64,000 nt of DNA, from contig JAFUZO010000038.1 of the NCBI GenBank assembly GCA_017476575.1, positions 2,551-66,550 of the forward strand. The letters run 5' to 3'. Source of the stretch: Bacteroidales bacterium. Its GTDB lineage: Bacteria; Bacteroidota; Bacteroidia; Bacteroidales; UBA932. The position numbers were made by a program, and so were the translations under genes. Shown piece after piece: positions 13,274 to 40,390 of the stretch (position 1 is the stretch's first letter; the number at the start of each line of letters is the position of its first letter). Below the pieces are notes generated by a model that worked only from the letters and a program-made list of their open reading frames with translations, searched no databases and was not told the DNA's origin.

Positions 13274-13279
13274 TCGGCT

Positions 13280-16242: not shown

Positions 16243-16347
16243 GAGTCGTATAAGGCCGACTCAAAGACATTCACCCCAGAGCGCGCCTGTTTCGCCACAT
16301 TTTTCCGGTATTCGCCCCCGTTCCATGGCAGGTCCGGGACAAAAGTC

Positions 16348-16355
16348 TACTTTTG
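16348..16355 (+). promoter_or_regulatory. -7 element for buk
   Basis: TACTTTTG, 37 nt upstream of the ATG. Confidence 0.5.
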
Positions 16356-16392
16356 TTATTGAACGGACTGATAACAAATCAAGAGTGGACGT

Positions 16393-26164: not shown

Positions 26165-26238
26165 TCCTCAATAGCTCAGTTGGTTAGAGCATCTGACTGT
26201 TAATCAGAGGGTCGTAGGTTCAAGTCCTACTTGAGGAG
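26165..26238 (+). tRNA. tRNA-Asn (GTT)
   Basis: Acceptor TCCTCAA/TTGAGGA, D-arm GCTC/GAGC, anticodon arm TCTGA-CTGTTAA-TCAGA and T-arm GTAGG-TTCAAGT-CCTAC. Confidence 0.98.
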
Positions 26239-26243
26239 CATCC

Positions 26244-26272
26244 AAGCCCCGCACTGTGATGCGGGGCTTTTC
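26244..26272 (+). terminator. Intrinsic terminator after tRNA-Asn (could also serve the convergent rpn)
   Basis: Stem AAGCCCCGCA/TGCGGGGCTT followed by a T-rich tail. Confidence 0.75.
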
Positions 26273-26278
26273 ATTTCT

Positions 26279-27367
26279 TCACCCTTCTTCCATCACCCGT
26301 GCGATGACTTCGGGAGAAATACCTGCCTCTACCATCCTCCGGACCCATTCTTCTTTCATCTTCTCCCGTCCCAACAGTATCCCCTTTTCCAGACCGATCT
26401 GTTCGCCTTTTTCCAGACCGATCTGTTCGCCTTTTTCCAGGCCGAGCCGTTCACCTTTTTCCAGACCGAGCCGTTCGCCTCGCTCCATGGCATAGTCGAT
26501 CCTTGCCACCTCATCAATGTACGTTGTCATATCATGGTCATAATTTTCCCGTTCATCTTTCGTCATGTTGGCCAGTTCCGCCGCATGGAACAGACGGCGG
26601 AAAAACTCCTCGCTGAACTCCAATGGCCTGTCCTCCAGAAAACTGATATACTTCAAGGCGAAGGCCAATTTCTCCAGCAGCGTGCGGCATCTCCCCATCT
26701 CCGTCACCCCGTAGGGCAGCCGCCCCAGTTCCAAGTAGATGAAGTGGAGCGCATCTGTCATCTGTTCATTCCCCTCATCGCTCCGCAGCGAATAGGAACT
26801 GACCAGCCCCTCGCGCAGGCAGGACACATCCTCATGCGGAAGCGTGAAGTTCAGGATGCTGACCATGTACACCGGGTTCAAATGGTAATTCCGGATCTGT
26901 TTCTTGCGGCCCCGTCGCAGGCTCTTCCGCTCTTCCAACGGCGTGATCAACTGCTCCCGCAACGGATACGTCGCGTAGAACAGCGCGCGCTCTGTGAAAT
27001 ACGTCTCGCCGCTCAACTGCATCTCCACGACGAATGTCTCCCCCTCCGGGGTCTTGCAATACAGGTCGAAGATGGTCTTCTTCTCGATGACGAAGAAACC
27101 CGGAATCTCTTTGTCGTGGAATTCCAGCCTGGCAATCTTCTTGTCCGGAATCAGGCACTCCAGTAACGCAATCATGATATCCATGTTCGCCGCCGAACCG
27201 AAGACCATTTTGAACGCTGAGTCGATCATGATGTCGGCATAGCGCTGGCACGTCCCATAAAGGGGATGGGCGATGCGCGGTTCTTCCAAACAGCCGGAAT
27301 GACTATCCTCCGGCCAACCATACGTGTACGTGTGTACTCCCATAGCATACAGGATTTGATGAAACAT
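26279..27367 (-). CDS. Rpn family recombination-promoting nuclease / PD-(D/E)XK putative transposase (start uncertain)
   Basis: D.AFK.VFG, FDLYCK...TFVVEMQ, ERALFYA, PVYMVSILNF, FIYLEL and a C-terminal G..xGLEK repeat tail. Confidence 0.9.
   Translation of the reverse strand: MFHQILYAMGVHTYTYGWPEDSHSGCLEEPRIAHPLYGTCQRYADIMIDSAFKMVFGSAANMDIMIALLECLIPDKKIARLEFHDKEIPGFFVIEKKTIFDLYCKTPEGETFVVEMQLSGETYFTERALFYATYPLREQLITPLEERKSLRRGRKKQIRNYHLNPVYMVSILNFTLPHEDVSCLREGLVSSYSLRSDEGNEQMTDALHFIYLELGRLPYGVTEMGRCRTLLEKLAFALKYISFLEDRPLEFSEEFFRRLFHAAELANMTKDERENYDHDMTTYIDEVARIDYAMERGERLGLEKGERLGLEKGEQIGLEKGEQIGLEKGILLGREKMKEEWVRRMVEAGISPEVIARVMEEG
26383..26478 (-). repeat. 4 x 24-nt in-frame tandem repeat (GERLGLEK x2, GEQIGLEK x2)
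   Basis: Units of C[C/T]TTTTCCAG[A/G]CCGA..[T/C]GTTC[G/A]C read directly from the sequence. Confidence 0.9.
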
Positions 27368-27656: not shown

Positions 27657-28757
27657 CTACACCTTCAGGAAAATGCCGCGACGATAGAGAAGACGGAGGA
27701 TGAAAAAAAGGATTGTGACATTGCCGAAGACGATGAGGACGGGATACCCGGCCCATCCGCTGAACCCGTGCAGAAGGGAGGCGGAGACGGAAGAGAAGTC
27801 GACGACCTCGCCTATGCAGTACGCAGCGATGGAGTTCATGCCATAGTACTTGAGCCAATCCAAGCCGCGATGCCAGCCGTGTACATCCACAAGGTAATAC
27901 GTCAAGGCAATGAGCAGGAAACAGAGGCCGCCCGAGAACAGGGTCATGGAACTGCTCCAGATTTTTTTCACGATGGGGAACAGCGGGTCCAGTGCCAGGC
28001 CGGCCAGCACGAGGACGGCACCGGACAGCGCCAGGAACCCGGCCCGGGCCTCCGGACGGCGGCCGTTCCGCAGGATTTCCCCGGCAAAGCACCCCAGCAT
28101 CACCGTCACTGCGAAATTGAGGCTGGAAAGGATCCAGGTGTACTGGTATTCCCCGTCATAGCGCCATGAACCATCCGCCTTCCAGGTCACCCCGTCCCGG
28201 TGGGAGCCCAGGACGGCCTTGTCGACCAGCATGGCGATATTCCCCTGCGGGTCGAGGTCCATGCTGCCGGACAGGACGAAGGCCAGCGCGTACAAGGCGA
28301 AGAAACCAGCGCAGAAGGCGGCCTGGGCGCGCCAGTCGAAATGGATGAACAGCAGCGCCGCCACCACGTACCCCACGGCGATCGCCTGCAGGGTGTTGGC
28401 GAACGGATGGAACTGTTTCCAGTCGAAAGCCAGCAGGTTGCCCTGCACGACCCAGCCGAGGAAGAACAGGAGACAGAAGCGTCGCAGCAGTTTCAGGTAG
28501 AACGCCCGGTCCGGACGCAGACCGTCGCGGTACTTCCCCATCGAGAAGGGAATCGTGATGCCGGACATGAACAGGAAGAGCGGCATAATGATGTCCCACA
28601 GCACGAAACCGTGCCAGGGGACATGCTCGATCTGGTGCTGCAAGCCGGTCAGGCCGGGACAGACCTCCACCAGAGCGGCCGCCACCGGTCCAAAGAACAG
28701 CAGCAGCCAGAGGTCCGCCCCCCGCAGGATGTCCAGCGAAGCCAGCCGCCGGTTCAT
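27657..28757 (-). CDS. HGSNAT-like / DUF5009 transmembrane acyltransferase
   Basis: RLASLDILRG, H..W.GF.LWD.IMPLFLFMSG, TLQAIA, P.VKKIWSSS and GMNSI. The ATG at 28757 forms an ATGA overlap with the upstream stop. Confidence 0.85.
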   Translation of the reverse strand: MNRRLASLDILRGADLWLLLFFGPVAAALVEVCPGLTGLQHQIEHVPWHGFVLWDIIMPLFLFMSGITIPFSMGKYRDGLRPDRAFYLKLLRRFCLLFFLGWVVQGNLLAFDWKQFHPFANTLQAIAVGYVVAALLFIHFDWRAQAAFCAGFFALYALAFVLSGSMDLDPQGNIAMLVDKAVLGSHRDGVTWKADGSWRYDGEYQYTWILSSLNFAVTVMLGCFAGEILRNGRRPEARAGFLALSGAVLVLAGLALDPLFPIVKKIWSSSMTLFSGGLCFLLIALTYYLVDVHGWHRGLDWLKYYGMNSIAAYCIGEVVDFSSVSASLLHGFSGWAGYPVLIVFGNVTILFFILRLLYRRGIFLKV

Positions 28758-30160
28758 CGTGCCGTAAAGGTTGCAAGCACGTTCAGCCCCGTCGCCTCGT
28801 CCCACACTCCCTCGTTGGCGAGCCGGACGGCGAATTCAGGGTCGTCGTGCAGCGTCTCCGCCTCGTCCGGCATCCAGAGCGACACCCGGTAGGTCTGTCC
28901 GGCCTTCAGGCCGGCGGGCAGGGAGAGGGTCTCGGCATACTCATACGTATGTCCGCCCTTCCATTCCCGGGGGTCCTTCGGCGAGACGATCTCGTAACGC
29001 TCCGAAGGGTCGGCTGCATTGGAGAGCACCCAGACGAGCGGCCGCCGGTTGATCAGGGAAGCGAAGCCGACGTTCTTGAAATGGAGCCGGAGGGTCCAGG
29101 ACGCACCGGCGCGGAAATCCCCGTCGAACGCGGCACCCAGCAGCACGAACCGGTAGCCCAGCCGCTTCACGATGTCGTCGTAGCAGCCCTCGGAGGCCCA
29201 GACATTGTGCGTCTTCTTGTTGTAGGCTTCGTTGAGATAGGTCCAATGGTACTTCTCCAAGTTCTCATACGTGCTCAGACAGTTGCAGTAGGCCGTCGGC
29301 GCATCGCAGGTCTCGCCGCCCATCGAGACATAGTTCGTCTCGGCCGCCCACATCTCCCGGTCGGCACTGGACTTGTACGTCCCCACGTCGTCGGAACTGG
29401 ACACGAAACAGTCGTTGAAGGCGGCCACACGCGCGATGTCCCCCGGACCGAAGGCGGTCGCCGCCGTGATCGTGTCCGCGAGGGTGGTGCCGAGGATGCC
29501 CCGCTTGTAGCCGGCATAGCGGACGGCCACCTGCCGGGAGACCGGGACCGCATCCAGCAAGGCTGCCATCAAGGCGCGCCGGGGCTTGTAATCCTCATCC
29601 GTCCTCGGGTTCATCCCGTAGTTGTCGGTATAATAGCCCTCACCCCAGGAGCCCACGAAACCATATTGGACGACGTAGATGATATCCGCATATTCTTGGA
29701 AGAGCGGCTTGAGTTGTTCGACGTGCCGGAGGGTCTGGACCAAGGTCGCATCCCAGGGATGATCGCTCTCGGCATAGCCGTCCGAATACGCGAACCGGAC
29801 GATGGTCTTCACACCGGCCGTGCGATGGGCCTCCAGCGTGCTCCGGATGGATTGCAAGGCCTCCTCGCTGAGGTCCTTGTCCACAAACTCCATGATATAG
29901 AACTCCGAATAACTGAAGGTCTTGCCGGAGCGCCGGATGTTGCGGAGGGCGGCCGGCGTGCTGGGAGACGGGACCCTTCCGTTCCGGAAATAGAAGATAT
30001 TGGGAACGTAGAGGCCGCGTTCGGGGTTGCAGAAGTTATCCGTGTCCTCCACGTAGGAAACATCGTACCGGAAAGGAGTATCCACGGACGGCTCCTCCGT
30101 CGGCGTCTTGCCGCAGGCCGCCAGCACAGCGGCACAGAATAGAAGCAAAAACTTTTTCAT
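28754..30160 (-). CDS. DUF4832/DUF4874 lipoprotein, putative TIM-barrel glycoside hydrolase
   Basis: Lipobox LAAC, NPERG.Y, G.K.IVRFAY, GF.GSWGE, NDCFVSS.DD.GTY, GGETC and LGYRF.L. Confidence 0.8.
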   Translation of the reverse strand: MKKFLLLFCAAVLAACGKTPTEEPSVDTPFRYDVSYVEDTDNFCNPERGLYVPNIFYFRNGRVPSPSTPAALRNIRRSGKTFSYSEFYIMEFVDKDLSEEALQSIRSTLEAHRTAGVKTIVRFAYSDGYAESDHPWDATLVQTLRHVEQLKPLFQEYADIIYVVQYGFVGSWGEGYYTDNYGMNPRTDEDYKPRRALMAALLDAVPVSRQVAVRYAGYKRGILGTTLADTITAATAFGPGDIARVAAFNDCFVSSSDDVGTYKSSADREMWAAETNYVSMGGETCDAPTAYCNCLSTYENLEKYHWTYLNEAYNKKTHNVWASEGCYDDIVKRLGYRFVLLGAAFDGDFRAGASWTLRLHFKNVGFASLINRRPLVWVLSNAADPSERYEIVSPKDPREWKGGHTYEYAETLSLPAGLKAGQTYRVSLWMPDEAETLHDDPEFAVRLANEGVWDEATGLNVLATFTAR

Positions 30161-30867
30161 GGTTCATTGAAAGTCCCTGACACTTCCATTGAATAGGTCC
30201 TTTCTCCATCATGGAGTGTCACGGTAAAAATATGTTCGGGGATGGCTGGTGTCTCAATAAAAACCAGCAGGATTTCATGGGGCCAAATCAGGTACAAATC
30301 TTCCGGCGCAACATCTGAAACCCTCTTGCAAACCGGATAGAATTCCGTATTCAAATATTTACGGAACATACTGAGGTCCTGTGGAACGGAGGTAATGTCG
30401 AATTTATAGTTTCCCTTTCCGTCAATAACCGGTAACGCCCGGCTTGCCACTATCCACGTTTTTTCATTCAAAGATGCTCCCGCAGGAATTTCATTGAAAT
30501 CGGACGAACTGACAATCTCAATCAGGTTGAAGGGATTGACAAGGGCATCATACAAAGAAGGATTTTCCTGTTTGAGAAAATGCCCGGAGTTGTCTCCAAT
30601 CTCGTCACGCAGGGAAGCAGCCTCTTCTACTGACAGATACTTCGGGATACCCTTGAAACAGAGAAAATGATATGGAGATACACTCCGTAGACCGTCGGCA
30701 ATCGGGACGAGTCCTTCTATTTGGGCATATCCATCGATGAAATAACTGGAAGTGACCTCCTTTCCGGGAACAATGTCCACTTTTTCTTCCGATGAAACCG
30801 CCTCTGTCCTGTTGCAGGCAAGGGCCAGCAACATCATCATAACCCAACTGATTCTTTTTATCATCAT
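30157..30867 (-). CDS. Hypothetical lipoprotein (AT-richer than its neighbours)
   Basis: Lipobox LALAC. Operonic, with an ATGA overlap at the downstream gene. No recognised motif. Confidence 0.7.
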   Translation of the reverse strand: MMIKRISWVMMMLLALACNRTEAVSSEEKVDIVPGKEVTSSYFIDGYAQIEGLVPIADGLRSVSPYHFLCFKGIPKYLSVEEAASLRDEIGDNSGHFLKQENPSLYDALVNPFNLIEIVSSSDFNEIPAGASLNEKTWIVASRALPVIDGKGNYKFDITSVPQDLSMFRKYLNTEFYPVCKRVSDVAPEDLYLIWPHEILLVFIETPAIPEHIFTVTLHDGERTYSMEVSGTFNEP

Positions 30868-30908
30868 TCAAAAGATTATGGCCGGATACCGTCTACGATT
30901 TTCAGGAC

Positions 30909-32483
30909 TTATTGTTTTTTAAAATAAGGCAGCCGGTCCAGGGGAACGGTGATGTCATGGCTTCCGCCTTCATAGATGACGCCGTCGTCGGAACACCAGG
31001 TTCCTTCCGGGAGAAGGACGGTCCGGGTGGTGCCGGGGGTGAGCATCGGGGCGACCAGGATGCTGTCTCCGAGCATGAACTGGTCGGTCACGGTAGCAAA
31101 TCCCTGGTGCGGGAACACATATTCAAGCGGACGGACGACGGGATCTCCCGTCTCCGCCGCATGGAGATAGAGCGCTTCGATGACATCCATCAGCGACTCC
31201 CGCACCGAGACCGCCTTCAGGACGGCCTGGTAGTGCGCCGCGTCCAGCACCCGCCAGGGGGCCAGGGAGAACTGCATCATCGGCATGAGGGCATGGACCT
31301 GGGCGGACCGGACGACGAGGTCCGGGTCGGTCTCCCCGTCGAGGAAGGTCTGGAAACTGCCTCCGCCGACCATGTCGGGGCAGGAGAAAGCGTAGCCCAT
31401 CAGCCCTTCCGCCAGCATCTCCGGAATGAGTTTGCCGAGGTCGGCCCAGGAATGCTCCTTGTCGTGAAGGCGCTGGACCACCGCCTCACCGGCATGCCGC
31501 CAGCCTGCCCGGAGTTCGTTGTAGGGATACTTCCGGGCCAGTTCCACGAAGCGGGAGCACTGTTCATAGCCGGGGACATCCCCGCCACAGGCCAGGGCAT
31601 CGGAAGGATAGAAGCCGAAATCGGCGGCATCGAACTTGAACCCGTCGATGCCGTAGTCGTCCATCAGCCGCTGCAACTGGCGGTCAAACCAGGCGACGGA
31701 CTCGGCGTTGGAGAAGTCCAGCACGGCGGACGTCCCGTTCCACCAGCGGACCGGATACGGATCGGACGCCTCCGCCCAGGTCGGTGCGCCGGACAGGAGG
31801 AAGCCCTTGAACGACATGATGTCCCGGCAGACGAGGTACTGGTCCATGCTGACGAAGGGGCAGACCCACAGCATGACCTTGAAGCCCATCCCGTGCAGGG
31901 CGTCGACCATCGCCTTGGGGTCCGGGAAGCGGCCCGGTTCGAACTCCCAGCGGCCGTAATCCGCCTGCCAGGTATCGTCGATCATCAGGATGCCCGGCGG
32001 AAGGCCGTGGTCGAGGATGCCCCGGGCATATTGCAGCACCCCTTCCTGGTTCTGGTCGTACATGAGTTCGATCCAGGTATTGTACTGCGGCATCCGGTAG
32101 AACTCCGCCGGAGGCAGGGTGCCGTCGGCGGGGAAGAAGCGTTCCGAGGCCGCCCGAAAAGCACCGGCCAGGTCCGAGGCCGGTTTCTCCGTCACCACCG
32201 CCGTACCGTCGATGACAATCCGGCGGCCGTCGATGCGGAAGCGGAAGGGGGTCTCGCTCCAGACATACCGTCCCTCGCTCGTCAGCAGCAACGGATTGAC
32301 CTGGTTTTCGGCATTGTCCGCACCGTCGGCGGAGAATCCGTCCGGGAAGGGCATGGCGCTGCCATCCTTGATCCGGCAACCCCAGACCCGCTCGCCGTCG
32401 GAAAGGGGGATGACCGTCTGCGGGGCCGTACAGGCCGCCGCCAGGAGAAGCATCGCCACGAAGGAAGGGAACTTGGTCTGCAT
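30909..32483 (-). CDS. Glycoside hydrolase family 31 (MYORG/KIAA1161-like clade)
   Basis: YNTWIEL, ILMIDDTWQ..YG, nucleophile motif GIDGFKFDAAD, PDMVGGG, MQFSLAPW and DQFMLGD.ILVAP. Confidence 0.9.
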   Translation of the reverse strand: MQTKFPSFVAMLLLAAACTAPQTVIPLSDGERVWGCRIKDGSAMPFPDGFSADGADNAENQVNPLLLTSEGRYVWSETPFRFRIDGRRIVIDGTAVVTEKPASDLAGAFRAASERFFPADGTLPPAEFYRMPQYNTWIELMYDQNQEGVLQYARGILDHGLPPGILMIDDTWQADYGRWEFEPGRFPDPKAMVDALHGMGFKVMLWVCPFVSMDQYLVCRDIMSFKGFLLSGAPTWAEASDPYPVRWWNGTSAVLDFSNAESVAWFDRQLQRLMDDYGIDGFKFDAADFGFYPSDALACGGDVPGYEQCSRFVELARKYPYNELRAGWRHAGEAVVQRLHDKEHSWADLGKLIPEMLAEGLMGYAFSCPDMVGGGSFQTFLDGETDPDLVVRSAQVHALMPMMQFSLAPWRVLDAAHYQAVLKAVSVRESLMDVIEALYLHAAETGDPVVRPLEYVFPHQGFATVTDQFMLGDSILVAPMLTPGTTRTVLLPEGTWCSDDGVIYEGGSHDITVPLDRLPYFKKQ

Positions 32484-32493
32484 GAGATTCAGG

Positions 32494-32520
32494 AAAAAAG
32501 GGGGAGGTGCCGGCCTCCCC
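32494..32520 (-). terminator. Intrinsic terminator within PUL2, after the surface lipoprotein gene
   Basis: The minus strand reads GGGGAGG-CCGGCA-CCTCCCC-CTTTTTT. Confidence 0.7.
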
Positions 32521-32531
32521 CGGGAAAAGAT

Positions 32532-33350
32532 TTAGTCGAGGGCAGGAAGGTCGACGGACAGGAGGGCCGTCTTGGCGAGGGACTCGCCGGCCGTCTGCTT
32601 GGCAGTCGGGAGCAGGCCCACCAGCGTCCAGTTCGAACTCTGGACGATGACACCGATGTTGATCTTGTTGCCGGTGATCTTCGGCATGAAGGCACGGACG
32701 AAACTGATCTCATACTTGATGATGTTGCCTTCGCGGACGCCGGCGCCCTTGAAGAGACCGTCGCGGGTCACGTCCTCGCGGGCCGGAGGGTTGACGGCCC
32801 AGATGTCCGTTCCGTCAGCACCGGTGAACTGGAAGAGCGCACCGTCGGAGAGGTCGCCCGGCTGGTCGCCGAAGATGGTCGCGGACTCGAAGAAATACTC
32901 CCAGCCGGCCGGTTCTTCCCAGCACCAGTTGATGCCGCCGGTCGCCGTGTTGGCGTCCGCATCGAAATAGATGTCGATCGGGCCCGCCGCGGCCTTGCCC
33001 AGCGTGGAGCCGTCCCAGTTGACACCGCCCTGGTATTCTACGGACATGTCGACCTCCACATACACATAGATGTAGGTGCCGTCCGCCGTGACCTTCAGGG
33101 TCTTCAAGGCATCGACCCGCTGGTTGTCGGGCTGTGCCCAGCCGACATTGGCGGCGTCGAGGGTGGCAGTCACCGCATTGGCCTTTGCCCAGTCGTCGAA
33201 CTTGCCGTCGATGGTGATGGCGAACTCGGTGTCATCGCCCTCGTCATCGTCTCCTTTCTTCTTGTTGTCGTCACTCTTGCTGCAGGCAAGGAACGAGACC
33301 GCGGCGGTCATCATGACCGCGGCTGCGAGAAATGAAAAATTACGCTTCAT
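32532..33350 (-). CDS. Surface lipoprotein, probable SusE/F-like glycan-binding protein
   Basis: Lipobox FLAC followed by an acidic KSDD export-like signal and ITIDGKFDDW. Lies directly after susD. Confidence 0.6.
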   Translation of the reverse strand: MKRNFSFLAAAVMMTAAVSFLACSKSDDNKKKGDDDEGDDTEFAITIDGKFDDWAKANAVTATLDAANVGWAQPDNQRVDALKTLKVTADGTYIYVYVEVDMSVEYQGGVNWDGSTLGKAAAGPIDIYFDADANTATGGINWCWEEPAGWEYFFESATIFGDQPGDLSDGALFQFTGADGTDIWAVNPPAREDVTRDGLFKGAGVREGNIIKYEISFVRAFMPKITGNKINIGVIVQSSNWTLVGLLPTAKQTAGESLAKTALLSVDLPALD

Positions 33351-33403
33351 GTAAATGGTGGTTAATGGGTTGATGTTTTTGTTATTGATTCAGATGGTAC
33401 ACT

Positions 33404-35113
33404 TTATCGTTCGTTCTGCGGGATGTGACTCACGGACACCTCGCCGTAGGGAATCTGGTAGGGAATCCGCTTGTCATCGGGGGCGATGACACCCCACGGC
33501 TGGCAGCCGCCGTACCGGCGGTCCAGCGACTTCTTGTTGCGGAACTGGTCCATCGGACGGTGTCCCTCGAAGCAGAGTTCCATCCGGCGCTCGTCGAGCA
33601 CGAGGTCCACGATGTCGTCGTAGCCCCGCTCCGCCATGTTGGCCGCCGTCATCTCCGCCTCGCCGGTGAGTCCGGCCCGTTCCCGGATGACCTTCACGTC
33701 CTGGAGGGCGCCCGCCGTGTTGCCCAGGTGGGCATAGGCCTCGGCACGGTTCAGGATGACCTCGGCCCAGCGGATGACGATCGGGGAATTGAGCACGTTG
33801 ACCCCGCCGTCCATGTTGGCGAACTTCTTCATGTAGATGGTCGGGAAGGTCCGGTTGAGATAGCACTGGTCGGACACGCTGACCTTGATGTCCTCGCCGC
33901 CGTAGGTGATGTAGGTCTCCGGGTAGGTGTTGACGATGCGGGTCTTGACGGTATAGGAGCCGCCGTCCGGGCCCTTGCAGACATACGCGCCGTCCGCGCT
34001 CCGCGTCGGGGCGGTGTCCGACCACATGGAACGGTAATCGGTGCTCGCGTCGGCGATCGGCCAGTAGACCATCTTCCGGTCGGCATTGTGCTGGTAGGGC
34101 TCGGCCATCGTCCGGTAGCGGAGGTCCTGCGGATAGCGGTTGAACAGGTCGATGAGCGGCTGTGAATAGTAGATCTCGCCCCATCCGCCGGCGCCCGGAC
34201 CGGCCGTCGTACCGGTCTCGCTGCTGTAGGAATAGAACATGGAGCCCATCGAACCCTTCTGGTCGGTCCAGTCGGACGGAATCATCGCCACGCACCAGAG
34301 CACTTCCTTGGAGGTCTTGGACTTCCAGAACAGGTTCTCGTAGTCCGGGTCCAGTTTGGAAGCCGGGTCGGCGCCGGCCAGCACCTCGTCCACCACGTCG
34401 ATGCAGTCCTGCCAGCGTTCCTCGTAGAGATAGACGCGCGACAGGATGCCCATCGCCGCCTCGTAACTGGCATAGCCGTTGTTGCCGCGGCGGCTTCCTC
34501 CCTTCATCAGTTCCGCCGCCTTCTTCAGGTCCGCCTCGACCTGGTCGTAGCATTCGCCGACCGTGGAGCGGTGGGTCTCGGAGCAGTCCGTGGAGGTGCG
34601 CAGGACCACGCCGAGGTTGTCCCGGCCGTGGGAATACGGGAAGGAATAGATCTGGAGGAGGTGGAGGTGGACCACGGCCCGGATGAAGTAGTTCTCACCC
34701 AGGATATGGCGCGACACAGCATCCCCGTCCTCCGGGATGGCGTCGATCATCGCGTTGGCGCTGAACAGGATCTTGTAGGCGATCCACCAGAAATAGCCGG
34801 TGTTGCCCTCCGTGGACACATCCTTGTAGATGATTGCGGAGTTCAGCGGGTCGGTCGTGTAGCCGCACAGGGTGATGTTGTCGCCCCGGAACTCCGCCAT
34901 CTGGAAGTAGTGGCGGACATAGGAGTTGGCCGAATAGACCATGCCGTCGTACATCAGGATGGCCTTGAACATGGCATAGGTGCCGTCCGTGACGACGGTC
35001 GAGTTGGACGGGTCCTTCATCGATTCGGACGAGAGGGCATCGGACGGGAACTTGTCGAGGTTGCAGGAGACCGCCGCAAGCAGGGCGCCCAGCATATAGA
35101 GTATCTTCTTCAT
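33404..35113 (-). CDS. susD: RagB/SusD family lipoprotein
   Basis: Lipobox AVSC, GENYFIRA, RWAEVILNRAEA and ERRMELCFEGHR. Confidence 0.95.
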   Translation of the reverse strand: MKKILYMLGALLAAVSCNLDKFPSDALSSESMKDPSNSTVVTDGTYAMFKAILMYDGMVYSANSYVRHYFQMAEFRGDNITLCGYTTDPLNSAIIYKDVSTEGNTGYFWWIAYKILFSANAMIDAIPEDGDAVSRHILGENYFIRAVVHLHLLQIYSFPYSHGRDNLGVVLRTSTDCSETHRSTVGECYDQVEADLKKAAELMKGGSRRGNNGYASYEAAMGILSRVYLYEERWQDCIDVVDEVLAGADPASKLDPDYENLFWKSKTSKEVLWCVAMIPSDWTDQKGSMGSMFYSYSSETGTTAGPGAGGWGEIYYSQPLIDLFNRYPQDLRYRTMAEPYQHNADRKMVYWPIADASTDYRSMWSDTAPTRSADGAYVCKGPDGGSYTVKTRIVNTYPETYITYGGEDIKVSVSDQCYLNRTFPTIYMKKFANMDGGVNVLNSPIVIRWAEVILNRAEAYAHLGNTAGALQDVKVIRERAGLTGEAEMTAANMAERGYDDIVDLVLDERRMELCFEGHRPMDQFRNKKSLDRRYGGCQPWGVIAPDDKRIPYQIPYGEVSVSHIPQNER

Positions 35114-35118
35114 CGTTG

Positions 35119-38100
35119 TCAGAATTTAAGGTTGATGCCCAGGGTGACCGCCCGGCCGACGGGATAGTTCATGGAGTACATGCCCGCCAATTCATACATC
35201 GTGCTTTCCAGCCGGACCTCCGGGTCCATACCGGAGAAACGGGTGTAGGTGTAGAGGTTGTCGCCGGAGATGAAGACCTTGGCGCCCTGCAGGTGGATGC
35301 GCCGACAGACGGCCTTCGGCAGGTCGTAACCCAGCGTGACGTTCTTCAGGCGCAGGAAACTGCCGTTCTCCAGGTAGCGCGAACTGATGCCGTCGGCGTT
35401 GTGGTTGCCGCCGGACACGGCCTTCGGGTGCGTGGCGATGTCGCCCGGCTGCTCCCAGCGGCTCCAGCCGAGCCCGTTGTCGATGGACATCTGGTTGTAG
35501 TCGGTATAGTGGCCGTCCGTATCCATGGTTACGCGGGTGTAGTTGAAGATCTTGTTGCCGACCACGTAGTTGAAGTTGACCGCCAGGCTGAAAGGCCCGT
35601 AGGTGAACGTGTTCACCAGGCCGCCGCTGAACAGCGGGGAAGCGCAGCCCACAATCTGCGAATCGTTGTCGGGGTCGAAGACGTTGGTGAGTTCCGTTCC
35701 GGTCACGTTGCCTTCTGCATCCTTGATAAGATGCTCCCATTGAGGATCGCCGTTTTCAGGATTGACGCCCATCCACTTAGGCATGTACCAGGAATACAGG
35801 GATTCACCCTCGCGGATGATCTGCCGGGCGCTGTTGCTGCCGACGGTCTGGATGATGTCCTCGCCGTCCGGAAGCGTCAGGACAGTGTTCCGGTTGAAGC
35901 CGATGTTGAAGCCGGTCGTCCAGGTGAAAGCCCGCTTCCGGATGTTCGTGGAGTTGACGGCCACCTCGACGCCCCGGTTCCGGATGGCGCCCATGTTCTT
36001 GGTGATGCTGGAGAAGCCGGTGGAAGGGGCCGTCGGCACATCGAGCAGCAGGTCGTCGTTGAGGATCTGGTAAAAGTCCAGGTTGACCTCCAGGAAGTCC
36101 TTGACATTCAGGTCCAGACCGAGGTTGGTCATCCGGGCGACCTCCCAATGGAGGTAGGGGTTCTCCTGCTTTTCCGGATACATGCCCACGACGCCCTGGT
36201 ACTGGACGGCACTCTCGGCGGCATAGGTGGAAAGGTAGGAATACGGGTCGATGCCGGAGTTGCCGGTCTCACCGTAACTGGCACGCAGTTTCAGGAAGGT
36301 GATGGCGGGGAAGTCCTTCATGAATTCCTCGCCGGTGGCCAGCCACGCGGCCGAGACGGACGGAAAATAACCGATCCGCTGCTTGGGGGCGAACACCGAA
36401 TTGGCATCGGCCCGGAGAGAGGCGGTGGCGATGTACTTCTCCTTGTAACTGTATTGGGCCTGTCCGAAGAGGGACCAGCCCTCCCCTTCGACCCAATAGC
36501 CGCCCACACTGTTCGGGGAGGCCGCATTCAGGACGGTCAGGCCGCTCTTCATCCCGACGCCTTCCGCCCAGGTGTAGTCGTTCTTCCACAGGCCCCATTC
36601 CTGGCCGAGCATGGCCGTGACATGGTGGTCCTCCGCGAAAGTCTCCGTGTATTTGAGCAGGTTGGAGGTGGAGAAACTGCGACCGGTGACGACATTCTTC
36701 TGAATCACGCCGTCCGGATACGAGGCACTGGCCGTCCGCGGGTCGATGACCAGTTTCCAGGTGGAGGCGGAGGTCCCGTAGCGGTTGGTCGTCGTGAAAC
36801 TGAGGTGGTCGGTGATGCGCCAGAGCAGTTGCAGGTCCGCCGTCAGGCCGTGGCCATTGGACTTGGAGGAGTTGTAGAGTTCGTTATGGAAGATGTTGAT
36901 CTTGTCGTGGGAATACCACGGCTGGCCGTTGTCGGAACGGGTGCCGCTCGACACCATCAGGTATTCGCCGGTGTTCACATCGTACGGATTGTCCCACGGC
37001 GACATCCGGTAGGCCGATTCGAGGGTGACATAACTCGACGTCCCCTGGTTGTTCTCGTCGTTGAAATGGAGCCGGAGGTTCATGTCCACCGCCTTCGAAA
37101 GTTTCAGGCCGAGGTTCACACGGCCGGTCGTGCGGGCGAAATCCGTGTTGATGAGGGTGCCCTTCTCCCGGTAATGGTCCAGGCTGACGAAATAGGTGGC
37201 ATTGTCCGAACTGCCGGCCACGGAAGCGTAGTAGTCCTGCGTCGAGCCGAGCCGGAAGGCCTCGTCCATCCAGCTGAAGTCCTGGTCGAGCAGGGTCTTC
37301 GGATACAGGATGTTAAAGATAGCCTTTGGATAGATGGACTTGCTCAGGTCGTAGAGTTCTTCGGAATTCATGGGACGGAAACGCCCGCTGAGGGCCTGCT
37401 TGACACCGGCCTGGGCCTTGAACTCGACCGCGGTCTTCTGGCCGGGGGTAGCCTTCTTCGTCGTGACAACGATGACCCCGCCCGCCGCATCGGACCCATA
37501 AATGGCGGTGGCCCCGGCATCCTTGAGGACGGTCAGGGTCTCGACGTCGTTCGGGTTGAAGGATCCGCCCGGGATGCCGTCCACCACATAGAGCGGGGCG
37601 GCGTTGGCGGTGATGGAGCCGGTGCCGCGGACCCGGATCTGGGCCGCCTCGCCGGGTTGTCCGGAGGCGTTGTAGACCAGCACGCCCGCGACCTTGCCCT
37701 GGAGCATGTTGCCGACGTCCGGCGTGGCCACATCGCGCAGGGTCTCGCCCTGGACGGTGACGACGGAACTGGAGAGTTCGGTCTTCTTGGCGCTGGAGTA
37801 GCCCATCATGACGACGGCATCCAGGAGGTTCAGTTCGGGTTCCATGGCGACGTCGAGGACGGTGCGGCTGCCGACGGGCACAGAGACGGTCCGGTAGCCG
37901 AGGTAACTGAACTCGAGGATGCCGTCCGGGGCGACTTCCACCGTGTAGCGGCCGTCGACGTCCGTGAAGGCGCCGGTCTGGGTGCCCTGGACGAAGACGC
38001 CGGCCCCGATGACGGGCTGGCCGGCGGCAGCGTCGGTGACGGTGCCGCGGACGGTCCGCCGGGCCGGTTTCGCCGGGGTGGCGGACGGGGCGTCACCCTT

Positions 38101-38379
38101 TTTCAGGATGATTTCCTTGCCCTGGATCCGGTAGTCGATACCAGTCTCGCGGAACAGGGCGGACAGGACCTCGGAAAGGGTGCCGCTGTAGTCCATGTTG
38201 CGGACCGCCGCACCGGAGAGGTCGTCGGCATTGTAGAAGAACGTGTAGTCCGTCGCCCCTTCGATCTGCCGGATGGCCTGTTCCAGGGTCAGGGCGCGTC
38301 CTTTGACAGCGACCTGGGCCGGACACCAGACCGATGCCGCCAGCAGCAGGGTCAGGACCGTAGTAAGGAAACGGTTCAT
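35119..38379 (-). CDS. susC: SusC/RagA TonB-dependent transporter with an N-terminal STN signalling domain
   Basis: STN domain (TLEQAIRQIE..TDYTFFY), LKDAGATAIYGS.AAGGVI.VTTK, NPYLHWE and terminal LGINLKF. Confidence 0.97.
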   Translation of the reverse strand: MNRFLTTVLTLLLAASVWCPAQVAVKGRALTLEQAIRQIEGATDYTFFYNADDLSGAAVRNMDYSGTLSEVLSALFRETGIDYRIQGKEIILKKGDAPSATPAKPARRTVRGTVTDAAAGQPVIGAGVFVQGTQTGAFTDVDGRYTVEVAPDGILEFSYLGYRTVSVPVGSRTVLDVAMEPELNLLDAVVMMGYSSAKKTELSSSVVTVQGETLRDVATPDVGNMLQGKVAGVLVYNASGQPGEAAQIRVRGTGSITANAAPLYVVDGIPGGSFNPNDVETLTVLKDAGATAIYGSDAAGGVIVVTTKKATPGQKTAVEFKAQAGVKQALSGRFRPMNSEELYDLSKSIYPKAIFNILYPKTLLDQDFSWMDEAFRLGSTQDYYASVAGSSDNATYFVSLDHYREKGTLINTDFARTTGRVNLGLKLSKAVDMNLRLHFNDENNQGTSSYVTLESAYRMSPWDNPYDVNTGEYLMVSSGTRSDNGQPWYSHDKINIFHNELYNSSKSNGHGLTADLQLLWRITDHLSFTTTNRYGTSASTWKLVIDPRTASASYPDGVIQKNVVTGRSFSTSNLLKYTETFAEDHHVTAMLGQEWGLWKNDYTWAEGVGMKSGLTVLNAASPNSVGGYWVEGEGWSLFGQAQYSYKEKYIATASLRADANSVFAPKQRIGYFPSVSAAWLATGEEFMKDFPAITFLKLRASYGETGNSGIDPYSYLSTYAAESAVQYQGVVGMYPEKQENPYLHWEVARMTNLGLDLNVKDFLEVNLDFYQILNDDLLLDVPTAPSTGFSSITKNMGAIRNRGVEVAVNSTNIRKRAFTWTTGFNIGFNRNTVLTLPDGEDIIQTVGSNSARQIIREGESLYSWYMPKWMGVNPENGDPQWEHLIKDAEGNVTGTELTNVFDPDNDSQIVGCASPLFSGGLVNTFTYGPFSLAVNFNYVVGNKIFNYTRVTMDTDGHYTDYNQMSIDNGLGWSRWEQPGDIATHPKAVSGGNHNADGISSRYLENGSFLRLKNVTLGYDLPKAVCRRIHLQGAKVFISGDNLYTYTRFSGMDPEVRLESTMYELAGMYSMNYPVGRAVTLGINLKF

Positions 38380-38391
38380 GGATGGGATGGT

Positions 38392-39243
38392 TTATAGGTA
38401 CAATTGATAGGTCTGTCCATCGCGGCGGTAGCGGAGGCCGAACACGTAGCCGACCTTGTCCAGGACGGATTCGAGGCTCTCGTCATGGCCGATGATGCCG
38501 GTCACCTTCGCCCCGCCGTCGTCGAAGCGCCGGGGCAGGGTGATGTCCACGCCGTATTTCCAGTGCACGAAGGCCAGCACCTCCCGGAGCGGCATGTTCT
38601 CCAGTTTGAAGCGGCCGGAGGACCACCGGGCATGGTCGAAGAAGGGGGTGACCTCGACCTGGCCGCCGCTGCACACCAGTTGCTGCAGCGGTTCGAGCGA
38701 GACCCGCTCCTGCTCCGTCACGAAATCCACCGCACCCTCGTACAGCGCGACCGCGACGGTCCCGGGCAGGTCCTGCCGGACGGAGAAACTGGTCCCGTGG
38801 ACCTCGACATAGCCCTCCGGGAGGTTGACGACGAAACGGGCGGCATCCTCCTGGCGGACCACCTCGAAACTGGCGCTGCCGTCCAGCCAGACCTGCCGGT
38901 CCTCGCTGAACCGGTCGCTGTAGCGGAGGCGGCTTCCCCCGTCCATCCAGACCCGGGAGCCGTCGGGCAGCAACTGGGCGCCGTTGTCGGCAACGACCCA
39001 GACGTACTGGTTGTCCGGCACGGGCGCGGCCGCCTTGCGTTGCAGGCGGGTCCCCGCCCAGATGCCGACGAGGAGGCAGGCGGCCATGGAGACGGTGGTC
39101 ACCAGGCCCCGGAACAGGAGATGGCGGCGCCGGGCGCGGTTCCTTTCCCGGTCGATGGAGTGCCAGATACGCTCTTTCCGGACGGCATCCCCCTCGGTCG
39201 GGAGCGACGTCCACTGGCGGTAGGTATAGGAAAACAAAGACAT
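38392..39243 (-). CDS. FecR family anti-sigma factor
   Basis: TM helix, LPDGSRVW, LDGSA.FEV, VHGTSF and W..G.F..ENMPL. Confidence 0.93.
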   Translation of the reverse strand: MSLFSYTYRQWTSLPTEGDAVRKERIWHSIDRERNRARRRHLLFRGLVTTVSMAACLLVGIWAGTRLQRKAAAPVPDNQYVWVVADNGAQLLPDGSRVWMDGGSRLRYSDRFSEDRQVWLDGSASFEVVRQEDAARFVVNLPEGYVEVHGTSFSVRQDLPGTVAVALYEGAVDFVTEQERVSLEPLQQLVCSGGQVEVTPFFDHARWSSGRFKLENMPLREVLAFVHWKYGVDITLPRRFDDGGAKVTGIIGHDESLESVLDKVGYVFGLRYRRDGQTYQLYL

Positions 39244-39295
39244 CGTGTTACGTGGTTACTGATATAAATACCGCCAGCAACCCCGTACCCCTACA

Positions 39296-39850
39296 TCAAC
39301 CGGCAACAAAAAAGAGGAAAAGGGGGAGATGCGTCTTCAAAAACTTGAGAGCGAGGTGGATGTTCCGCTCGACACCCTTTTCGGAGATGCGCATGCGGGT
39401 AGCGATTTCTGCATAGGTAAGGCCCTCCTCCCGGCTCAGGAGGAAAGCTTCCCGCTGCCGGGGTGGAAGGGCACTGACAAGCCGGTCCACGTAGCGGCGC
39501 AGGTCTTCGGCTTCCGGGAAGGTTCCGTCGTCCGTCACCTCGGCCTCCCGCCGGAGAGCCTCTTTCACAGCCTCTTCATTGAGGGAACGATGGGCCCGGT
39601 TGAAGATGAAGTTCCGGGTGAGGATGAACAGGAGGCCGTCCAGTCCCAGCTCCGGGTCAAGACGTCCACGCATCTCCCACAGCCGGATGAAGACCTGCTG
39701 GACGGTTTCCTCCTGCTCATAGCCGTCCTTCAGATAGAGGGCAGCGAAATGCAGGACCTTGGCCCAATAGTGGTCATACAGACGCCGGTAGGCTTCTGTG
39801 TCTCCGCTTCTGAGGAGGAGAATATCGGTCTTGATTTCATTCGCGTCCAT
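39296..39850 (-). CDS. ECF sigma-70 factor
   Basis: VQQVFIRLWE and LPPRQREAFLLSREEGLTYAEIA. The start was trimmed to the ATG at 39850. Confidence 0.93.
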   Translation of the reverse strand: MDANEIKTDILLLRSGDTEAYRRLYDHYWAKVLHFAALYLKDGYEQEETVQQVFIRLWEMRGRLDPELGLDGLLFILTRNFIFNRAHRSLNEEAVKEALRREAEVTDDGTFPEAEDLRRYVDRLVSALPPRQREAFLLSREEGLTYAEIATRMRISEKGVERNIHLALKFLKTHLPLFLFFVAG

Positions 39851-39931
39851 CAGGACGGTAAAGATAGTGATTTTTCCGGACATATCGCCCGGTATACAGA
39901 AACAGGCCGGGAGAAACCCCCTGGCCTGCTG

Positions 39932-40005
39932 TCGAGATGATCCGACTCGAACGGACGACCCCCACGTCCCGAACGTGGTGCGCTAGCCAACTGCGCTACA
40001 TCTCG
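39932..40005 (-). tRNA. tRNA-Pro (CGG)
   Basis: Acceptor CGAGATG/CATCTCG, anticodon arm CCACG-TTCGGGA-CGTGG and T-loop TTCGAGT. Confidence 0.97.
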
Positions 40006-40042
40006 ATGTACCCTGTAGAGCCGGGTCGGCTGGATGTCAAAC

Positions 40043-40297
40043 TTAGGCGAGTTTGTTGATGTAGACGGCGAGACCGCTCTTGAGGTTGGCAGCCTTGTTC
40101 TTGTGGATGACACCGATCTTTGCAAGCTTGTCGATCATGGCGTAGACCTTCGGAGCATTCTCTTCGGCGGCCTTCTTGTCGGTGGTGTTGCGGAGGTCGC
40201 GGATCGCGTTCCGCGTCGTCTTTGCATAGTACTTGGTATGCAATCTGTGCCTTTCGCTCTGGCGTACGGCTTTCTGTGCAGATTTTGTGTTTGCCAT
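40043..40297 (-). CDS. rpsT: 30S ribosomal protein S20
   Basis: [13 protein letters not shown]...[22 protein letters not shown]. Confidence 0.99.
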
Positions 40298-40315
40298 TGT
40301 CTTACTTTTTATATT

Positions 40316-40390
40316 TGGTAGTGGGTAGGAGAATCGAACTCCTATTGCGGGAATGAAAATCCCGAGTACTAACCGTTATACGAACCCACC
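40316..40390 (-). tRNA. tRNA-Glu (TTC), CCA encoded
   Basis: Acceptor GGTGGGT/ACCCACT, anticodon arm CGGGA-TTTTCAT-TCCCG and T-arm AGGAG-TTCGATT-CTCCT. Confidence 0.96.

Follow-up and report, generated by a model that had tools for sequence, protein, structure and literature searches.

The GalNAc-rich polymer Pel is attacked by the alpha-1,4-N-acetylgalactosaminidases PelA and Sph3 (PMC12345266). In Gram-positive bacteria, pel clusters are accompanied by DUF4832 genes. The DUF4832 protein SIR_1591, encoded in the pel operon of Streptococcus intermedius and described in 2025, also dissolves aggregates of GalNAc-rich (alpha-1,4-GalNAc) Pel, a result that documents aggregate dispersal rather than cleavage of a defined bond (PMC12345266). 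Bacteroidota build their canonical PULs from an STN-SusC transporter, SusD, a surface lipoprotein and downstream glycosidases, under the control of an ECF sigma factor and its FecR anti-sigma factor. In Bacteroides, ECF-sigma PULs often serve for host glycans. Two further systems are relevant here: bacterial NagX (NF046061), which is required together with NagA for growth on glucosamine (PMC9007349), and human HGSNAT (PDB 8vkj, 8jkv, 8tu9), which is paired with NAGLU.

The window, that is, the whole stretch of 64,000 nucleotides of Bacteroidales DNA analysed here, carries a PUL with all the canonical parts. It differs from the canonical type in its enzymes, a GH31 of the MYORG clade and a DUF4874/DUF4832 protein, and in a putative transmembrane acetyltransferase; a literature search returned no described PUL with this set.

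Layout of the locus

The PUL occupies the minus strand from 27657 to 39883. Its SusC, FecR and ECF sigma genes lie outside the 27657-35113 range to which a preliminary description was devoted. In the order of transcription, the features are as follows.

39931-40005: tRNA-Pro, immediately upstream of the ECF sigma gene
39296..39883, minus strand: ECF sigma factor, with which the PUL begins (Pfam Sigma70_r4_2 1.4e-18, Sigma70_ECF 2.1e-9)
38392..39243, minus strand: FecR-type anti-sigma factor (Pfam FecR 4.2e-12, FecR_C 8.2e-6)
35119..38379, minus strand: SusC-like TonB-dependent transporter, STN signalling domain at the N-terminus (Pfam STN, CarboxypepD_reg, Plug)
33404..35113, minus strand: SusD-like lipoprotein (Pfam SusD_RagB 2e-30, SusD-like_3 3.3e-18)
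32532..33350, minus strand: 272-aa lipoprotein, lipobox FLAC followed by SKSDDNKKKGDDDEGDD
32494..32521, minus strand: intrinsic-terminator-like hairpin and T6, at the boundary between transport and enzyme genes
30909..32483, minus strand: GH31 lipoprotein, 524 aa (Pfam TIM barrel 1.3e-28, C-terminal domain 1.2e-15)
30157..30867, minus strand: 236-aa lipoprotein, encoded on a low-GC inserted cassette
28754..30160, minus strand: DUF4874/DUF4832 lipoprotein, 468 aa (Pfam DUF4874 E 3.6e-39, DUF4832 E 1.4e-54)
27657..28757, minus strand: polytopic membrane protein of the NagX/HGSNAT type, 366 aa (full-length match to NCBIfam NagX_SO_3504, E 6.3e-45)

The preliminary description had recognized in the distal part a sub-operon made of GH31, DUF4832 and acyltransferase genes, placed behind an internal terminator. 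The three genes and their family assignments stand, while the gene of the 236-aa lipoprotein had been overlooked. The last three genes are coupled by ATGA overlaps at two places: at 30160-30157 the open reading frame of the 236-aa lipoprotein overlaps the DUF4874/DUF4832 gene, and at 28757-28754, as had been noticed, the stop of the latter overlaps the acyltransferase start. Since four-base overlaps are common in operons, they are unremarkable alone.

The hairpin, an eight-pair stem (32521-32500, seven pairs being G-C) followed by TTTTTT, sits between the stop of the 272-aa lipoprotein gene (32532) and the start of GH31 (32483). Terminator-like sites are not in excess in the region (9, for 10.0 expected from shuffles) and this one is the strongest of them. 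The terminator is further upheld by five related loci (L008-L012), where a G+C-rich hairpin with a T-run, of other sequence, occupies the same position. Such a structure past the lipoprotein gene would limit read-through, so that the transport and binding genes would be expressed above the enzyme genes.

The 272-aa lipoprotein, with an acidic stretch directly past the lipobox cysteine, is a probable surface glycan-binding protein. Its gene lies downstream of SusD in nearly all related loci; a Pfam search gave no match, and the ESM Atlas yielded no more than a weak resemblance to CBM9 (score 0.88). The PUL is bordered by tRNA genes and a transposase-like gene, and it is absent from the three other genomes of the genus that were searched.

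The enzyme genes

The predicted structure of the DUF4874/DUF4832 protein (AF2, pLDDT 93.5) is a TIM barrel followed by a C-terminal beta-sandwich. A profile search matched no solved structure; comparison of folds gave a flat list of TIM-barrel glycosidases headed by GH5 and beta-amylase (Z 13-14). Glutamates E47, E174 and E283 are invariant in 62 sequences, as are D159 and D250. SIR_1591 (PMC12345266; PMC7112168) shares with this protein the DUF4832 domain, a length of 468 aa and a predicted TIM barrel then beta-sandwich, and fold comparison, in the published work as here, leads first to beta-amylase and other TIM-barrel glycosidases. By contrast, SIR_1591 has a transmembrane helix as its anchor and is encoded in a biosynthetic operon, while the present protein is a lipoprotein of a catabolic SusC/SusD locus. 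We consider it a putative TIM-barrel glycoside hydrolase and a candidate alpha-1,4-(N-acetyl)galactosaminidase. This is the activity of the PelA hydrolase domain (GH166), Sph3 (GH135) and Ega3 (GH114) on Pel or galactosaminogalactan, and these enzymes are also (beta/alpha)-barrels (PMC12345266); unlike it, they belong to the biosynthetic clusters of producers rather than to a consumer's PUL, and no sequence relation to DUF4874/DUF4832 was detected.

The GH31 lipoprotein is akin to the bacterial GH31 alpha-galactosidases of known structure (PDB 8j50-8j53), aligning end to end with 8j50 (residues 24-523, E 3.8e-154). Like these it is short, devoid of a large N-terminal domain, and its catalytic-region motifs, including KFDA and CPDM, are conserved. 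The 8j50 enzymes are reportedly specific for alpha-1,4-galactobiose. Human MYORG (PDB 7qqf, E 6e-61), whose substrate is Gal-alpha-1,4-Glc (PMC9491548), is also a relative. The proposed link to the alpha-galactosidase clade is thus borne out, and because of this close relationship the enzyme probably removes alpha-galactose. The idea that acetylation would be needed for GH31 to act finds no support here.

The longest reading frame of the acyltransferase gene opens at GTG 28805; ATG 28757 begins the conserved N-terminus (M-N-R-R-L-A-S-L-D-I-L-R-G), and the protein read from there is covered at 100% by homologues of 366-368 aa. With many hydrophobic segments, it matches the NagX model (NF046061) over its full length, with a score of 154 bits that is far under the equivalog cut-off of 480, and its genomic context favours galactosamine over glucosamine. 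The profile of its clade finds HGSNAT (E 1.5e-38), the match extending over the two halves of the membrane domain. Its H45, invariant in the clade, is aligned with the catalytic H297 of HGSNAT, and D9 and R12, which do not vary either, make up the DxxR motif shared with the human enzyme (as defined in PMC12423673), which differs by a luminal N-terminal domain missing here. The protein is therefore a candidate transmembrane hexosamine N-acetyltransferase, as judged from its sequence. The periplasmic N-acetylation initially proposed gains from these conserved residues and from the genetic support for NagX-type proteins in glucosamine use (PMC9007349).

Related loci and signals of galactosamine metabolism

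A core of SusC, SusD, lipoprotein and DUF4832 genes is conserved across related loci, often with a GH31 of the MYORG-like clade, and orthologues of SusC (45-77% identity) stand at their head. The order SusC-SusD-lipoprotein-GH31-DUF4832 is kept in L008, L009, L011 and L012, while L010 has the core without GH31. The acetyltransferase gene is downstream in L009 and L011, and upstream of GH31 in L013; in genome G252, DUF4832 is followed by the acetyltransferase gene, one further gene and GH31. The same parts recur in a deep second lineage (L060, L068, L090). The acetyltransferase gene is found in three of six close loci and three of 80 more distant metagenome loci, many of the 80 being truncated. 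It belongs to the accessory rather than the core components of DUF4832 PULs, and most members of its clade are in unrelated contexts (GH2, GH16, GH43, housekeeping genes).

The co-occurrence is non-random: in the acetyltransferase tree, the members from DUF4832 PULs fall into three well-supported separate clades. In a sample of 400 further genomes of the order, 17 have DUF4832 and 20 the MYORG-clade GH31; seven have both, against 0.85 expected, and in four of these seven the two genes are at most 7 kb apart. Of the 17 genomes with DUF4832, 11 have a member of the NagX family, compared with 69 of the 400 overall; within this sample, the acetyltransferase gene directly adjoins DUF4832 only in G252.

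Several neighbours point to GalNAc or GalN. Genes of GH109, a family of alpha-N-acetylgalactosaminidases, adjoin the DUF4832 locus in L009, L012, L042 and L068, and the acetyltransferase gene in L016 and L020. DeoR, SIS (AgaS-like) and GatZ/KbaZ-like genes lie upstream of SusC in seven to nine loci; a search for these AgaS, KbaZ and DeoR genes in the present genome returned none. In L060 the acetyltransferase gene is followed by those of an APH kinase, an MFS transporter and a NagB-like protein. In the present genome, a second DUF4832/GH31 locus (contig C59) comprises GH109, GH20, an M64 peptidase and two DUF4832 genes, tandem DUF4832 paralogues being found in related loci. Another contig (C17) couples an APH kinase with GH3 and a nucleotidyltransferase, a context that also fits AmgK/MurU-type recycling of cell-wall sugars. 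In G252, a second acetyltransferase copy is located directly downstream of a GH89 NAGLU gene, an arrangement that mirrors the lysosomal HGSNAT-NAGLU pair; relatives of the present protein are, more generally, paired with alpha-N-acetylhexosaminidases.

Substrate and order of reactions

An alpha-linked galacto-configured amino-sugar glycan, that is, a GalN/GalNAc exopolysaccharide or fungal wall polymer, is well supported as the substrate class because SIR_1591 disperses Pel (PMC12345266) and because DUF4832 PULs recur with GH109, APH-type kinases and DeoR, AgaS-like and KbaZ-like genes. This part of the earlier interpretation holds, together with the sequence observations once corrected. The analysis shows which genes are present and to which families they belong, that catalytic residues are conserved and that synteny with GalNAc-related genes recurs; from this we infer all activities, the substrate, the lipoprotein locations and the order of acetylation and cleavage. 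We lean towards an ECF-sigma/anti-sigma PUL for a polymer of this kind with amino groups both N-acetylated and free, likeliest an alpha-1,4-linked chain of Gal, GalNAc and GalN of the fungal galactosaminogalactan or bacterial Pel type. Pel being without galactose, the GH31 fits galactosaminogalactan better. We know of no reported abundance of galactosaminogalactan in rumen or gut. Most likely, this is the PUL of a rumen or gut Bacteroidales that digests alpha-linked galactose/galactosamine polymers from other microbes, restoring missing acetyls across the inner membrane. The polymer would be bound by SusD and the 272-aa lipoprotein, its alpha-1,4-GalNAc-rich stretches cut by the DUF4874/DUF4832 hydrolase and the fragments imported via SusC. 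In the periplasm GH31 would trim terminal alpha-1,4-galactose, and the acetyltransferase would restore acetyl groups, on the chain end or on the released sugar. Enzymes requiring the N-acetyl group would complete the process: the GH109 enzymes encoded elsewhere in the genome, the APH-type sugar kinase and perhaps the DUF4832 enzyme. GH109 or the DUF4832 enzyme is more likely than GH31 to be the N-acetyl-dependent partner of the acetyltransferase.

Acetylation might instead follow cleavage. As proposed for Shewanella-type NagX, the protein would act solely on free periplasmic GalN or GlcN, yielding GalNAc or GlcNAc for an importer and a kinase, without unblocking any glycosidase and without an HGSNAT-style step. 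We regard this as possible rather than probable. The sole experimental data on the NagX family concern growth on free glucosamine (PMC9007349), the genes downstream in L060 are what such a route would use, many contexts of the clade lack any alpha-HexNAc-ase, and a tree unsorted by context suggests a broad acceptor. In contrast, the gene repeatedly adjoins exo-enzymes that need an N-acetyl group on the terminal alpha residue (GH109 in L009, L016, L020 and L068, GH89 in L015), which is the lysosomal logic, and the locus has no recognizable exo-alpha-galactosaminidase to release GalN. That the protein would be no acetyltransferase at all, and rather the inner-membrane importer of the locus, as the putative MurNAc transporter MurT of Tannerella forsythia, to which NagX is distantly related (PMC9007349), is quite improbable. 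The PUL indeed has no other inner-membrane transporter, and none of the DUF5009/NagX proteins has been biochemically assayed (PMC12423673); against this, the catalytic histidine and the DxxR motif, which acyl-transferring members carry, do not vary within the clade, L060 has a separate MFS transporter beside the gene, and the need for NagA in glucosamine use speaks for acetylation (PMC9007349).

The target might also be no microbial polymer but a glycoconjugate from the host or the diet, bearing alpha-GalNAc and Gal-alpha-1,4-Gal epitopes (mucin-type O-glycans, blood-group-A-like, globo-series or Forssman-type), on which DUF4832 would act as an endo- or exo-enzyme. The contents of the C59 locus, the control by ECF sigma/anti-sigma with STN-SusC and the origin of related loci in rumen, marmot and human gut metagenomes would suit this view, which we find unlikely: such glycans seldom contain free amino sugars, leaving little work for an N-acetyltransferase, the locus is without fucosidase, sialidase or sulfatase genes, tandem DUF4832 paralogues suggest depolymerization of a long homopolymer-like chain, and the only DUF4832 protein tested acts on Pel (PMC12345266). 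It is, finally, very doubtful that a general hexosamine-salvage gene simply landed at the 3' end of the operon and works independently of DUF4832 and GH31. The accessory status of the gene, the location of most of its clade elsewhere and signs of mosaic assembly (the low-GC cassette, the tRNA and transposase-like genes at the borders, the absence from the three congeners searched) are in keeping with such an accident; the translational coupling, the recurrence in three clades with differing gene orders and the excess of the NagX family in DUF4832 genomes speak against it.

The low-GC cassette

The gene of the 236-aa lipoprotein forms a sharp-edged block (GC 0.45 and GC3 0.48, versus 0.62 and 0.83 for its neighbours). 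Its predicted structure (AF2, pLDDT 89) is a beta-sandwich with helices, for which fold comparison gave no clear relative (top Z about 7), and 86 remote relatives of the protein were retrieved from 1.84 billion representatives.

Organization and borders of the locus

The genes considered here all lie on the minus strand and form one PUL of the SusC/SusD type: a susC-like gene for a TonB-dependent transporter adjoins a susD-like gene, co-oriented genes for GH31 and DUF4874/DUF4832 proteins follow downstream, and the ECF sigma/FecR regulators stand upstream.

Features of the PUL and its borders (window coordinates)
39931-40005, tRNA-Pro, one border of the PUL
39296-39883, minus, ECF sigma factor, upstream of SusC
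38392-39243, minus, FecR anti-sigma factor
35119-38379, minus, SusC with STN domain (Pfam Plug/CarboxypepD_reg/STN)
33404-35113, minus, SusD (Pfam SusD_RagB)
32532-33350, minus, 272-aa lipoprotein
32521-32494, minus, hairpin and T-run
30909-32483, minus, GH31 (524 aa, lipobox)
30157-30867, minus, 236-aa lipoprotein
28754-30160, minus, DUF4874/DUF4832 protein
27657-28757, minus, NagX/HGSNAT-like membrane protein (candidate acetyltransferase)
26279-27367, PD-(D/E)XK transposase-like gene, the other border, together with a tRNA-Asn

DUF4832 and the acyltransferase, which the preliminary description placed in a sub-operon with GH31, do overlap by ATGA. A second ATGA overlap joins DUF4832 to the 236-aa gene, which that description did not mention, and GH31, DUF4832 and the acetyltransferase are united in one translationally coupled sub-operon. 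Ahead of it stands the hairpin, with 8 pairs (7 G-C) and six T behind them; no other terminator-like site of the region is as strong. Five related loci (L008-L012) carry a G+C-rich hairpin and T-run at the same place after the lipoprotein gene, so that across these six loci the position has been kept and the sequence has not. This recurrence makes it a conserved feature dividing uptake genes from enzyme genes, and its role would be either to terminate transcription within the operon or to stabilise the RNA end.

The 236-aa lipoprotein gene is an inserted cassette, since in relatives GH31 directly abuts DUF4832 with no gene between. The gene itself (30150-30950) forms a low-GC block with sharp edges, GC being 0.45 and GC3 0.48, against 0.62 and 0.83 in the neighbours. 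The family is small and fast-evolving, and comparison of its fold gave no convincing relative (Foldseek E above 0.003, best Z 7.2). The PUL as a whole looks horizontally acquired; neither DUF4832 nor this GH31 clade was found in the three other genomes of the genus and the one other of the family that were searched. There are tRNA genes on both sides, and a transposase-like gene at one end (26165-27367; 39931-40390).

The hydrolases

The GH31 protein combines a catalytic TIM barrel (PF01055, 1.3e-28) with a C-terminal beta domain (PF21365, 1.2e-15). Its nearest solved relatives are the short GH31 alpha-galactosidases of entries 8j50-8j53, aligned end to end with E values of 1e-147 to 1e-154 (best 3.8e-154); MYORG comes second at 6e-61, and every other GH31 structure stands at 1e-21 or weaker. 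Aligned with 8j50, it has the same GIDGFKFDA and CPDM(V/I)GGG motifs in the catalytic region; these hold the catalytic aspartates, the nucleophile Asp and the acid/base Asp being assigned as is general for GH31. The 8j50-8j53 enzymes are reportedly specific for alpha-1,4-galactobiose. The end-to-end match and the identical motifs therefore make this protein most probably an alpha-galactosidase of the MYORG-like clade, a prediction from homology under which no N-acetyl group would be needed for cleavage. The proposal that GH31 is the beneficiary of acetylation was accordingly not borne out. The 272-aa ORF and the GH31 ORF share a frame, with one TAA between them, as if a single GH31 gene had been split. 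This was rejected because the 272-aa protein has a lipobox of its own and no GH31 match, the terminator sits between both ORFs, the two genes are kept in relatives, and the solved relatives are just as short (532-541 aa).

The DUF4874/DUF4832 protein contains both Pfam domains in order and above cut-offs (PF16173, 134 bits; PF16116, 186 bits). Its AF2 model (pLDDT 93.5) shows a TIM barrel of eight beta/alpha units, followed by the C-terminal strands of a beta-sandwich (338-466), and all 62 sequences of an alignment keep the glutamates E47, E174 and E283. Comparison of folds with Foldseek and VIA-align places GH5 enzymes and beta-amylases (GH14) closest, at Z 13-14, in a flat list. Sequence and profile searches against PDB chains returned no match. 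The structural comparison envisaged in the preliminary description thus yielded TIM-barrel glycosidase folds and invariant glutamates but no specific family that could be named, and assignment to any one glycosidase family was dropped, the list being flat. With such a list and no sequence relative in the PDB, DUF4874/DUF4832 looks like a family of its own. The sole member tested so far, SIR_1591 of the Streptococcus intermedius pel operon, dissolves aggregates held by GalNAc-rich, alpha-1,4-linked Pel, the evidence being aggregate dispersal (PMC12345266). More generally, Gram-positive pel clusters are accompanied by DUF4832 genes (PMC7112168).

A candidate transmembrane acetyltransferase

The last gene of the sub-operon codes for a member of the HGSNAT/NagX branch (DUF5009/PF07786) of the transmembrane acyltransferase (TmAT) superfamily, for which acetyl-CoA-dependent N-acetylation of a hexosamine across the membrane is predicted. 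The NagX_SO_3504 model spans residues 3-366 of 366 (E 6.3e-45), and the clade profile matches HGSNAT (E 1.5e-38) in two stretches covering both halves. An invariant histidine, H45, is aligned with the catalytic H297 of HGSNAT, whose equivalent in Shewana3_3111 is His72 (PMC9007349). The first transmembrane helix displays the DxxR motif of the superfamily (PMC12423673), with D9 and R12 invariant in 34 sequences. The view that NagX N-acetylates glucosamine across the membrane is backed by fitness data from five bacteria (PMC9007349). The present protein reaches 153.8 bits with the corresponding equivalog model NF046061, below the curated cut-off of 480 bits; it is a family member and not an equivalog, so that its acceptor may differ. 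That this NagX-like membrane protein would be a transporter is improbable, next to the histidine and DxxR residues that it keeps.

Could its place in the PUL be incidental? Many of its relatives do lie in unrelated contexts. Yet the acetyltransferases linked to DUF4832 fall into three separate, well-supported clades of a maximum-likelihood tree, so the two must have come together, or stayed together, more than once; fortuitous linkage appears just as improbable as a transporter, and the protein is an accessory module. Elsewhere, close relatives of the acetyltransferase adjoin GH109 (L016 and L020). In L015 (G252:C1:1055000-1074500), a locus of another genome of the order, a copy 49% identical directly follows the gene for a GH89 alpha-N-acetylglucosaminidase (NAGLU), which parallels in a bacterium the HGSNAT-NAGLU pair of the lysosome. 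L015 is itself a SusC/D locus with GH20. In L060, the acetyltransferase precedes an APH kinase, an MFS transporter and a NagB-like gene. The periplasmic N-acetylation first proposed for this PUL gains support from the fitness data on NagX and from the His45 and DxxR motif kept here.

Related loci and paralogues

A contig scan yielded six related loci in species genomes, all rumen or gut MAGs. A SusC-SusD-lipoprotein-DUF4832 core recurs in them, accompanied by GH31 (5/6), the acetyltransferase (3/6, in one case upstream of GH31) and GH109 (2/6). Eighty metagenome loci were also compared, their DUF4832 proteins being 35-48% identical to that of the window. DUF4832 paralogues often stand in tandem there; 17 of the loci have an adjacent GH31 of this clade, three contain the acetyltransferase and two contain GH109. 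In seven to nine related loci, genes for a DeoR regulator, a SIS-domain protein and a GatZ/KbaZ-like protein stand ahead of SusC, which we take to be the GalNAc/GalN catabolism genes (AgaR, AgaS, KbaZ) of enterobacteria and Shewanella. Queries with the relatives' companion genes did not find AgaS, KbaZ, DeoR, EamA, alkaline phosphatase or the other companions in the genome carrying the PUL; the APH kinase was the sole match.

Of 400 other genomes of the order, sampled evenly and including few close relatives, 17 held DUF4832 and 20 held this GH31 clade. Seven held both, against 0.85 expected (at most 7 kb apart in four), and the NagX family occurred in 11 of the 17 with DUF4832 as compared with 69 of all 400; these ratios overstate significance because related genomes are not independent. 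Adjacency of NagX and DUF4832 was seen in this sample only in the genome of L015.

The genome carrying the PUL has a second locus on another contig (C59, about 72000-98259), in the order SusC/D, M64 peptidase, GH20, GH109, a relative of the 272-aa lipoprotein, DUF4832, an 891-aa protein of unknown function, GH31, DUF4832 and SusC/D. Its GH31, 62-63% identical to that of the window, has an N-terminal thioredoxin-like extension. The enzyme families are thus those of the PUL, with GalNAc-ases and a peptidase in addition. A BACON-domain protein is also present. On a further contig (C17), another GH109 stands beside an APH-type sugar kinase. This cluster (10690-16790) also comprises a nucleotidyltransferase and GH3, and its kinase is 83% identical to one beside DUF4832 in L012; it represents either GalNAc salvage to UDP-sugar or an AmgK/MurU-like set for recycling cell-wall sugars.

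The likely target

Together, these lines of evidence point to a galacto-configured glycan with alpha linkages, containing GalNAc and free GalN. The alpha-linked amino-sugar glycan of the preliminary description fits well with the precedent of SIR_1591 and Pel, and with the GH109 and DeoR/SIS/KbaZ-like companions. That the GH31 alpha-galactosidase is so frequent points to galactose in the chain as well. With such a composition galactosaminogalactan (alpha-1,4 Gal/GalNAc/GalN) fits best and Pel (GalNAc/GalN) second. A host glycan as the target is unlikely, if slightly less so than the transporter or fortuitous linkage; the loci do come from gut and rumen, and a peptidase and GH20 stand in the C59 paralogue.

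For an amino-sugar polymer of the Pel or galactosaminogalactan kind, the acetyltransferase would give the cell access to the de-N-acetylated part. Repeated adjacency to GH109 or GH89 slightly favours acetylation of chain ends, followed by cleavage, over cleavage followed by acetylation of free GalN. Tentatively, these elements can be joined as follows. Gut and rumen Bacteroidales may have rebuilt the lysosomal HGSNAT-then-NAGLU logic for alpha-galactosaminides: the transmembrane acetyltransferase would restore N-acetyl groups to the ends of Pel or galactosaminogalactan fragments that were imported in a partly de-N-acetylated state, a step required before GH109 exo-alpha-N-acetylgalactosaminidases and DUF4874/DUF4832 could act. 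DUF4874/DUF4832 would then constitute a new family of glycoside hydrolases with alpha-1,4-N-acetylgalactosaminidase activity, and the bacterial MYORG-like GH31 alpha-1,4-galactosidases would have in these polymers their long-sought natural substrate.

Pel and galactosaminogalactan serve bacteria and fungi as polymers of biofilm formation and virulence. To our knowledge, hydrolases for them come only from producers, and we know of no described consumer pathway. If the PUL does act on them, the orphan DUF4874/DUF4832 family, abundant in rumen and gut metagenomes, would acquire a role and the bacterial MYORG-like GH31 enzymes a physiological context. HGSNAT-type transmembrane acetylation, which is lost in Sanfilippo syndrome type C, could then be studied in a tractable bacterial model, and new enzymes would become available for dispersing Pel and galactosaminogalactan biofilms.

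Other companions of DUF4832

An alkaline phosphatase accompanies DUF4832 PULs in six metagenome loci, and a phytase-like/SdiA-regulated beta-propeller protein in 14 (phosphatase and propeller sites include L080:10731-11867 and L045:13240-14865). In Gram-positive pel operons, CotH kinase and polyphosphate-polymerase-like genes adjoin DUF4832. Taken together, these companions suggest that the target polymer may be phosphorylated.

A thioredoxin-like/DUF5106 lipoprotein of about 235-250 aa occurs in 19 DUF4832 loci (such as L010:12768-13475, L009:12527-13279 and L011:12437-13138), and in the C59 paralogue (87422-88290) this part is fused to the N-terminus of GH31. Finally, a 671-aa protein without Pfam match lies between DUF4832 or GH31 and the acetyltransferase in L090:10135-12150, L060:13306-15321 and L048:13295-15319 (second locus lineage). 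In the ESM Atlas it is near GH36/melibiase-like TIM barrels (score 0.96), and it may represent another family of alpha-galactosidase-like enzymes.
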